Shown here piece by piece: positions 36,973 through 38,788 of a DNA stretch of 39,466 bases. Numbering within the stretch: position 1 is the first letter of the stretch; the number at the start of each line of letters is the position of its first letter. Below the pieces are notes generated by a model. The model was not told the origin of the DNA, made no database searches, and saw only the letters and a program-made list of their open reading frames with translations. A program made the position numbers and the translations under genes. Source of the DNA: Candidatus Thorarchaeota archaeon (lineage in GTDB: Archaea; Asgardarchaeota; Thorarchaeia; Thorarchaeales; Thorarchaeaceae); contig PRDI01000015.1 of NCBI GenBank assembly GCA_003345595.1, positions 1 through 39,466 of the forward strand, in the 5' to 3' direction.

Positions 36973-37830
36973 TTGGACAGACAGCGAAGTGTGGCGAAGG
37001 TCTGGAGAAGTCAACCGACGTTGGAAGGCGCAGGTGTGCGTCTGAAGCGAGCCTTTGGATTCTATGAAGTCAAGGCACTCGACCCATTCCTGCTGCTTGA
37101 TGACTTTCATTCAAAGAACCCGGACGACTACGTCGCAGGCTTCCCATGGCATCCACATCGCGGCATTGAAACCGTAACGTACATGATTAGCGGAAAGGTT
37201 GCACACAGAGATAGCTTGGGCAATTCGGGAGTGATTGGACCCGGCGACGTCCAGTGGATGACTGCAGGAAGCGGGATCATCCACGAGGAGATGCCTGAGC
37301 GAACAGAGGGAATGTTGGCGGGCTTCCAGCTATGGGCCAACCTGCCGGCATCTCACAAGATGATGCGCCCACGCTACCGAGGAGTGGAGAGCAAGGACAT
37401 ACCTGAGGTGACACTTGAAGGCGGCGCAAGAGTCAAAGTGATATGTGGTAGAGTTGATGCCACAGTGGGGCCAGTGACCGAGATAATAACGGACCCTGAG
37501 TATTTGGATGTCACACTGTCCAGCAAGGGCCACTTCGTTCATGCAGTCAAGAGTGGGTACACAGCTTTTGCACACGTCATAGACGGAAGGGGCTACTTCG
37601 ACAAGAACCGGAGTCAGTCTGTGGAATCAGAAACAACCGTCCTGTTCTCAGACGGGTCCGAGGTCGAAGCACTGGCTGCTGCCAGAATGTTCCGTTTTCT
37701 CCTGGTTTCGGGCAGACCTCTTAGGGAACCGGTTGCTTGGAGAGGGCCAATCGTAATGAATACTGAGAACGAGCTGGCACTGGCCTTCGATGAGTATAGG
37801 AATGGTACGTTCCTGAAGCACAGACAGTGA
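36973..37830 (+). CDS. Pirin family protein
   Basis: DPFLLLD, GFPWHPHRGIETVTY, QWMTAGSGIIHEE, FQLWANLP and GPIVMN. Confidence 0.95.
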   Translation: MDRQRSVAKVWRSQPTLEGAGVRLKRAFGFYEVKALDPFLLLDDFHSKNPDDYVAGFPWHPHRGIETVTYMISGKVAHRDSLGNSGVIGPGDVQWMTAGSGIIHEEMPERTEGMLAGFQLWANLPASHKMMRPRYRGVESKDIPEVTLEGGARVKVICGRVDATVGPVTEIITDPEYLDVTLSSKGHFVHAVKSGYTAFAHVIDGRGYFDKNRSQSVESETTVLFSDGSEVEALAAARMFRFLLVSGRPLREPVAWRGPIVMNTENELALAFDEYRNGTFLKHRQ

Positions 37831-37881: not shown

Positions 37882-38553
37882 TCAGCCGAGAGCCTTCCTC
37901 ATGTCCTCTTTCTCTTGGTCTGATAGTTTGTCGAGTCCCTCAAACGAGTCGACAGAGCGGTTGCTGATCCTGCTCTTCACACACTCAAGATGGTGCCAGC
38001 GGTACGTGACATGCTCTTGGAACATAGAAGGCTCGCCAACACGAAGATGACCTTTCTCAATAGGTAGGTTGCAGGTCCGACATGTCGCGCGACCAGACTT
38101 GGCTGTTTCAATCACCCACTTCATCTCCTCTTCCTTGTGCTCCTCATCGACAAACTCCTTGAGTGATTCTAGAAACTGCTTGGGATTGGGGCCTGCGAGT
38201 TCCGGTGTCAAAGTCACGATGAATGAGTCGTACTGCGTCGGTTTGTATGACACGTCAACGTTTCCGTTTTTGTTGACCTGCTTGATTTCGGAGAATGGCG
38301 GCCATTGACTCGTGTCCTTCATGTATTTGACCATCTGCTTGACCAGAACATTGGACGCGTCTCTCTTGGAGATCATCTTCAGACCATCACTGGTTACGAG
38401 TCCGTACGCTGTGGAAGTGAATGTCCTGCCGCTGTCATCAGTGACATGAGACTTGATGAGCACCAAAGACCCGATTGGTGCTCCGTTCTTCACCCTAGGC
38501 ATTCGGAAGGAGTTAGGGTTCACGAAGTATGCCCATTCTTCGTGAATGTCCAA
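37882..38553 (-). CDS. Protein with a C-terminal PARP-type zinc finger and unknown N-terminal domain
   Basis: AKSGRATCRTC..PIEKG.LR.G...WHHLEC...GLDKLSDQEKE. Confidence 0.85.
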   Translation of the reverse strand: MDIHEEWAYFVNPNSFRMPRVKNGAPIGSLVLIKSHVTDDSGRTFTSTAYGLVTSDGLKMISKRDASNVLVKQMVKYMKDTSQWPPFSEIKQVNKNGNVDVSYKPTQYDSFIVTLTPELAGPNPKQFLESLKEFVDEEHKEEEMKWVIETAKSGRATCRTCNLPIEKGHLRVGEPSMFQEHVTYRWHHLECVKSRISNRSVDSFEGLDKLSDQEKEDMRKALG

Positions 38554-38788
38554 CCATTCGGTCAGATACAGACTCTCCCAAGATACCTACGTAGCCAAGT
38601 CATTAAAGCCTATCGCCACAAGGTAGAACATGGCGCTTGTTAGCTCTACTCAAGAAAACTTCGGGAACAAAGAGTTTCAGTGGCTCCATACATGTGGCCT
38701 CTGAGATGGGAAAGACTAATAGCGGGAACGACGAGAGTGAATTGTCTACTATCCACTCGGTTCAAGACGTGTTGGGAGGTGCCAAAGA

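Follow-up and report, generated by a model that had tools for sequence, protein, structure and literature searches.

A PARP-type zinc finger joined to an undescribed folded domain in a Thorarchaeota genome: a possible enzyme-free adaptor for DNA breaks

Eukaryotic signalling of single-strand breaks starts with PARP-type zinc fingers, and the contact roles assigned in this work to the equivalents of PARP1 residues R18, R34 and M43-F44 come from crystal structures of PARP1 bound to DNA. The closest known fingers to the one analyzed here are Zn1 and Zn2 of human PARP1 (F1/F2; PDB 3od8, 3odc, 4av1, 2n8a) and the finger of DNA ligase III-alpha (1uw0). PARP genes have been reported to be absent from archaea (Perina et al. 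2014, PMC4245714), and among Asgards PARP-specific zinc fingers have been described only in Heimdall- and Thorarchaeia (Eme et al. 2023, Nature 618:992, PMC10307638, suppl. 4.1.3). The homologues in that report belong to the same gene class as the Thor-type protein studied here, and the single paragraph devoted to them records their presence only, without architecture, N-terminal domain, bacterial members or function. A full-text literature search returned nothing on prokaryotic stand-alone zf-PARP proteins. The occurrence of the finger in these archaea is hence known already, but its N-terminal partner domain is undescribed.

In this work we analyze a gene of this class located in a 39,466-nucleotide stretch of Thorarchaeota DNA (the window). 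The gene is real and intact, with a real PARP-type finger, and its N-terminal domain constitutes an undescribed, confidently folded family without a Pfam family or a convincing PDB fold match. We propose, with moderate confidence, that this small, enzyme-free, two-domain protein is a break-docking adaptor, in which the finger docks and the N-terminal domain binds a partner or ligand. The features of the gene and of the related loci discussed below are collected in Table 1.

Table 1. Coordinates of the zf-PARP gene, its parts and related loci. Positions without a locus prefix refer to the window; aa, amino acids.
Feature	Position	Strand	Basis or remark
Whole gene, 223 codons, TTG start at 38553 and TGA stop (37884-37882)	37882..38553	(-)	ORF list and sequence
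N-terminal domain, undescribed family, residues 1-137	38143..38553	(-)	
Acidic flexible linker, residues 138-145, within DEEHKEEEMK	38119..38142	(-)	low pLDDT
zf-PARP finger, residues 146-223, C-terminal helix included, DQEKEDMRKALG	37885..38118	(-)	
Zinc ligands C158 (38080-38082), C161 (38071-38073), H188 (37990-37992), C191 (37981-37983)	37981..38082	(-)	HMMER alignment to PARP1
Predicted DNA-contact residues between ligands: R171 (=PARP1 R34), M177-F178 (=M43-F44)	within 37981..38082	(-)	
R155 (=PARP1 R18), just upstream of zinc ligands	38089-38091	(-)	
TATA-like hexamer TTTAAT, 49 nt upstream of TTG	38602..38607	(-)	read from sequence
Giant Loki-type LRR proteins, 1369-1613 aa or more, N-domain near C-terminus	L032:5352-10190; L033:1-4770; L034:1-4107	(-); (+); (+)	
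N-domain plus conserved ~110-aa C-terminal domain, ~280-300 aa	e.g. L037:2514-3431, L036:2556-3455	(+)	alignment A3
HSP20 downstream of N+finger	L043:2233-4348	(-)	also L003, L010, L011, L012, L017, L021, L024
Overlapping genes of one Thor subclade: N+finger 260 aa, 493-aa protein, N-only paralog 159 aa	L035:3561-6250	(+)	
Co-oriented gene just upstream of N+finger, weakly rubrerythrin-like	L074:2380-2871	(+)	E 0.002, below Pfam cut-off
Planctomycetota N+finger gene	L067:2872-3702	(+)	contig 70% GC
Polyangiaceae N+finger gene	L076:2065-3567	(+)	contig 71% GC
Enzyme-free tandem-finger proteins	L085:3001-3543, L081:2995-3942, L102:2565-3323	(+)	

An earlier reading of the sequence alone had noted the motifs AKSGRATC158xxC161, LRVG, WHH188xxC191 and G.DKLS..EKE at 37882-38553 (-), all of which are seen in the C-terminal 78 residues, and had assigned them to a finger of the PARP1/DNA ligase III type. 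Profile searches bear out this assignment. The Pfam zf-PARP model (PF00645) matches residues 149-222 over its entire length (positions 1-87 of 87) with 60 bits against a cut-off of 39.3 (E 4e-16), the gene scores 62.2 bits in a genome-wide search, and phmmer against PDB sequences recovers PARP1 (E 1.4e-12) and DNA ligase III (5e-6); the match is not a chance pattern. The ligand spacing, C158-x2-C161-x26-H188-x2-C191, fits the C-x2-C-x(~26-30)-H-x2-C arrangement, and a residue-by-residue HMMER alignment covering human PARP1 Zn1 and Zn2 equates the ligands with C21, C24, H53 and C56 of Zn1, R155 with R18, R171 with R34, M177-F178 with M43-F44 and W186 with W51. The four ligands, R155, R171 and W186 are invariant in a 13-member family alignment, and position 178 is F or Y in every member. 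In three dimensions, residues 146-223 fold like the fingers of PARP1 and ligase III, and alignment and homolog conservation both point to the phosphate-grip arginines and base-stacking hydrophobic residue expected of a zf-PARP domain. Its sequence thus characterizes the finger as a genuine PARP/ligase III-type CCHC zinc finger.

The same reading had placed an undescribed domain ahead of the finger and had seen no ADP-ribosyltransferase or ligase domain in the protein, and both statements stand. Pfam detects zf-PARP alone, NCBIfam yields no match for the 223-aa protein, and no ligase family appears in Pfam or NCBIfam at E up to 1. The N-domain likewise falls into no Pfam, NCBIfam, PADLOC or PHROG family; the anti-phage defence and phage profiles of PADLOC and PHROG returned none at E <=0.1 for either the 223-aa protein or stand-alone relatives of the domain. 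The source genome (2.73 Mb, 129 contigs, 83% complete) contains one zf-PARP gene and no match to PF00644 (ART) or PF05406 (WGR); the PF00644 search was equally empty in every control genome, so that this genomic absence is weakly shown.

When modelled on residues 1-138 alone from a 42-sequence alignment (A2), the N-domain forms a compact alpha+beta domain (pLDDT 91.9, pTM 0.83) in which four strands (b1 8-11, b2 30-38, b3 44-54, b4 57-61) and three strands (b5 88-93, b6 99-103, b7 111-115) flank a 19-residue helix (63-81), followed by two short helices. In the full-length model pLDDT falls below 50 solely at residues 138-142, and the gap in pTM between the whole protein (0.58) and the N-domain alone suggests that N-domain and finger fold as two independent domains. 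Fold searches by three routes retrieved no significant PDB match for the modelled N-domain (Foldseek best E 0.05), BFVD yielded nothing significant either (best E 0.011), and a search of the ESM Atlas with residues 1-142 peaked at a score of 0.78, within the noise range. An internal duplication of the domain was rejected (hhalign of the two halves, probability 0.35%), and a homodimer prediction with two copies scored 0.00, a result that is uninformative in either direction.

Sequence conservation was assessed across 42 diverse N-domain members. P85 and F111 are the sole invariant positions, W7, F16, K34 (98%) and G97 are near-invariant, and D109 is conserved at 88%. Almost all conserved positions are hydrophobic or structural (W7, F16, P85, G97, P105, F111, F127), leaving K34 and D109 as the only widely conserved polar residues, and no conserved His/Cys/Ser/Glu constellation was found in these members. 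The median pI is 7.0 for N-domains and 8.5 for fingers, and the N-domain of the 223-aa protein carries a net charge of -1. This combination of conservation and pI is characteristic of modules with a structural or interaction role and fits neither enzymes nor classical nucleic-acid binders; the term "effector domain" used in the sequence-only reading overstates what a set of almost exclusively hydrophobic or structural conserved positions conveys.

The N-domain family is small: a profile search of 1.84 billion representative proteins returned 142 clusters at E <=1e-3 and 104 at 1e-10. Local domain mapping places zf-PARP directly after the N-domain in about 45 of 140 mapped relatives, with the finger-bearing forms (N, N-domain; F, finger) comprising N-F, N-N-F (one annotated from a Hodarchaeales MAG), X-N-F and N-F-X; the X regions have no Pfam or PDB sequence match. 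The remaining relatives include stand-alone N-domains, proteins of Loki-type genomes that combine the N-domain with a ~110-aa C-terminal domain, LRR proteins of 1369-1735 aa that bear a Rho_N/SAP-like motif and end in the N-domain, a WD40 protein (P0045) and an ankyrin protein (P0130). For the giant LRR proteins, the ~900 N-terminal residues show no Pfam match; the Rho_N/SAP-like motif is present in two of the three listed in Table 1. The ~110-aa domain of the Loki-type proteins ends in the pattern GD.I.F.G..K.D..LG...QNIRK, which resembles an OB fold; a direct test gave an hhalign probability of 38% over 22 columns, with no PDB sequence match.

We propose that the single CCHC finger would clamp the DNA ends exposed by nicks, gaps or double-strand breaks in the manner of PARP1 Zn1/Zn2, with R155 and R171 gripping the phosphate backbone and the M177-F178 loop stacking on bases. 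The flexible acidic linker would tether the finger to the compact N-domain, a presumed non-catalytic module for partner or ligand binding; the finger would locate the lesion and the N-domain would hold or recruit something there. By analogy with the eukaryotic fingers, the conserved contact residues and the fold of this finger make DNA-break binding its most likely activity. What the analysis establishes is which domains are present, how they are conserved and distributed and how they are combined; each functional step is an inference from this. The adaptor role is one that we infer from residue conservation, charge and domain partners: the N-domain is read as a binding module because it is not basic, has no conserved catalytic-looking set and is joined elsewhere to LRR repeats with Rho_N/SAP-like motifs, to WD40 and to ankyrin. 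As an argument from absent catalytic and basic features, this reading is a weak one.

Weak hints in fold and features toward phage ssDNA-binding proteins and PUR-like repeats speak against the adaptor and would suit a bipartite reader of nucleic acids, in which the N-domain is a second binder of DNA, ssDNA or RNA that, together with the finger, recognizes, protects or bridges gapped or broken DNA while recruiting nothing, akin to PARP1 Zn1+Zn2 or to the ligase III finger plus DBD. PUR/Whirly/PC4-type and phi29-type ssDNA-binding folds were considered for the N-domain, but every structural match fell below significance, hhalign of the halves detected no internal b4-a repeat, and the near-neutral pI and charge given above are not those of a basic domain. 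Repeated fusion of such a binder to other DNA-binding modules would, moreover, be partly redundant. We regard this account as unlikely, though deserving of serious consideration.

In the window, the zf-PARP gene is convergent with a pirin gene (36973-37830), and beyond this pair an intergenic stretch precedes genes without an assigned function. No DNA-repair or partner-indicating gene and no HSP20 neighbour was found in the window, which also contains no Rfam families or tRNAs and, between 34472 and 36055 (~1.6 kb), no ORF >=120 aa on either strand. Across N+finger loci the neighbourhood is conserved solely within subclades and not across clades, and this, together with window genes that indicate neither a partner nor DNA repair, counts against the adaptor. 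Within subclades, 8 of 48 distinct N+finger loci have HSP20 as their immediate downstream neighbour on the same strand, with the order NF-HSP20-NF in one near-complete genome, and in 7 of 11 Heimdall-labelled loci the N+finger gene is preceded by the conserved, weakly rubrerythrin-like gene of Table 1. The genes that come next in the Heimdall-labelled loci encode a convergent AMP-binding enzyme and a PLP-dependent enzyme. About six Thor loci present an apparent operon of N+F gene, 493-aa gene and N-only paralog. The 493-aa protein gives a weak metalloprotease-like hint (PDB sequences, E 0.37-0.49; Atlas structure, TM 0.37 to a cluster with 25% of members carrying Peptidase_M6). It has neither an HExxH motif nor a Pfam family, a search of the source genome did not find it, and it was dropped as a partner of the window's protein.

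The recurrence of stress-linked neighbours is a suggestive but weak functional hint. Both the HSP20 adjacency and the rubrerythrin-like gene of another clade would fit a structure-specific regulator of stress genes, in which the finger would occupy intact DNA of unusual form (hairpins, cruciforms or a promoter element), the N-domain would respond to a signal and the neighbouring stress genes would be regulated; PARP1 fingers are also able to bind non-B DNA. The lack of neighbourhood conservation across clades and the absence of stress neighbours from the window tell against such a regulator, as do the conserved finger residues, which correspond to those for end and backbone contacts and not to base-specific ones, and we consider it improbable.

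Eukaryotic zf-PARP domains are usually fused to enzymes, and an N-domain fold without match that conserves two polar residues, K34 and D109, could be taken for a new kind of catalytic domain that works on DNA ends or on break-associated proteins. With invariance restricted to P85 and F111, no catalytic-looking constellation, a small size (~135 aa) and a position at the tail of repeat-scaffold proteins that is typical of interaction modules, a cryptic enzyme of this kind appears very improbable.

The N-domain was found in 92 of 400 genomes of the phylum, including 42 of 85 in the window's own family and 23 of 31 in a second family, and the finger in 101 of 400, including three further families with tandem two-finger proteins. 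Most full-length relatives come from 'Candidatus Thorarchaeota' MAGs, and a more distant N+finger set (31-34% identity, 33% GC) is labelled Heimdallarchaeota. Two full-length N+finger relatives are bacterial, on one Planctomycetota and one Polyangiaceae contig. Their gene GC (0.69 and 0.72) equals that of their flanks (69-72%), so that mis-binned Asgard DNA is rejected as their source and the genes are not fresh transfers either. In the Polyangiaceae protein the finger is truncated, and a ~310-aa unknown region extends the N-terminus. Many Myxococcota, Planctomycetota and Bdellovibrionales contigs encode fingers above the Pfam cut-off, and tandem-finger proteins fall into size classes of ~180 aa (many Myxococcota), 316-327 aa (Heimdall-labelled MAGs) and 253-264 aa (Hodarchaeota-labelled MAGs). 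The sequence-only reading had described the finger as mainly eukaryotic and as a candidate eukaryotic signature. Such a signature would be absent from bacteria and other archaea, and the description is too strong because bacteria carry the finger, widely as tandem-finger proteins, because its presence in these archaea is known, and because the N+finger architecture itself exists with native composition in two high-GC bacteria.

A finger tree of 96 domains and 85 columns, comprising Asgard and bacterial fingers and one human Zn1 fragment, addressed the further suggestion that the finger might be a recent transfer nested among bacterial fingers. The N+F fingers come together in a single group (SH-aLRT 91) of 34 Asgard sequences, the Planctomycetota finger and one finger truncated by the 5' end of its contig; the first-finger and second-finger clades of Myxococcota and the tandem fingers of Asgards lie outside this group. 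The finger therefore does not nest inside a bacterial clade. Among tandem proteins, first fingers cluster with first fingers across species, and second fingers with second fingers. The deeper branching order of the tree is not resolved, and the human Zn1 fragment, on a branch 2.0 long, is uninformative; a query with region 144-223 aimed at eukaryotic sequences scored no long proteins with a similar finger. The idea that this finger is ancestral to the eukaryotic one finds no support in these analyses.

The extent of the gene bears on its integrity. An in-frame TAG at 38587-38589 makes the TTG at 38553 the first canonical start, whereas the public gene call for the locus (P0001, 206 aa) begins at an ATG corresponding to residue 18, omits 38503-38553 (-) and excludes the first N-domain strand. 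Because the family-invariant W7 and P13 sit upstream of that ATG, the TTG start is preferable. A leaderless CTG start at 38565, about three codons upstream of the TTG, is a possible alternative that would yield the family consensus MTEWL, and it would also fit the N+finger family better than the residue-18 ATG. The TTTAAT hexamer may represent an archaeal promoter element. The GC content of the gene (0.504, against 0.517 for the window) indicates native composition, and the 13 full-length homologs of the protein range in identity from 35 to 87%, with most relatives at only 35-48% and the best, at 87%, present on 10 contigs. In a search of sequencing runs, the stretch occurs in wetland metagenomes of two studies, and no RNA run is listed among the matching runs. 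That the frame is a spurious or decaying ORF without function, as its non-ATG start and its not being found in three other genomes of the same genus might suggest, is scarcely credible for a full-length, intact frame of native composition that retains all family-invariant residues, yields confident models for both domains and has a close homolog on several contigs.

A broader and decidedly doubtful extension of the adaptor reading holds that the N-domain is a new fold and that a DNA-lesion signalling network of Asgards, and sporadically of bacteria, uses it as a shared output or docking module, brought to DNA either by a PARP-type break sensor or on giant LRR, WD40 and ankyrin scaffolds. If true, this network would be a prokaryotic, ADP-ribose-independent counterpart of the recruit-to-break logic that eukaryotes later built around PARP1. 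PARP-type fingers borne on other modules, without a PARP enzyme, in the Asgard relatives of eukaryotes could illustrate break sensing before poly(ADP-ribose) signalling, and study of the partner domain would give a function to a confidently folded family absent from Pfam and PDB. In practical terms the gain is modest, with a small protein that lends itself to E. coli expression and clean in-vitro tests.

Compared with PARP1, the protein analyzed here bears a single finger and not a pair, and the loop between R171 and W186 is two residues shorter than in Zn1, so that its substrate preference may differ. Its finger is C-terminal, whereas those of PARP1 and ligase III are N-terminal, and the Zn3/PADR1, BRCT, WGR, catalytic and ligase domains of these enzymes are all absent from the 223-aa protein. 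The tandem proteins of Hodarchaeales/Heimdallarchaeia (250-325 aa) and Myxococcota (~180 aa) are likewise enzyme-free and built on PARP-type fingers but, unlike the N+F proteins, they combine two fingers and do without the N-domain.
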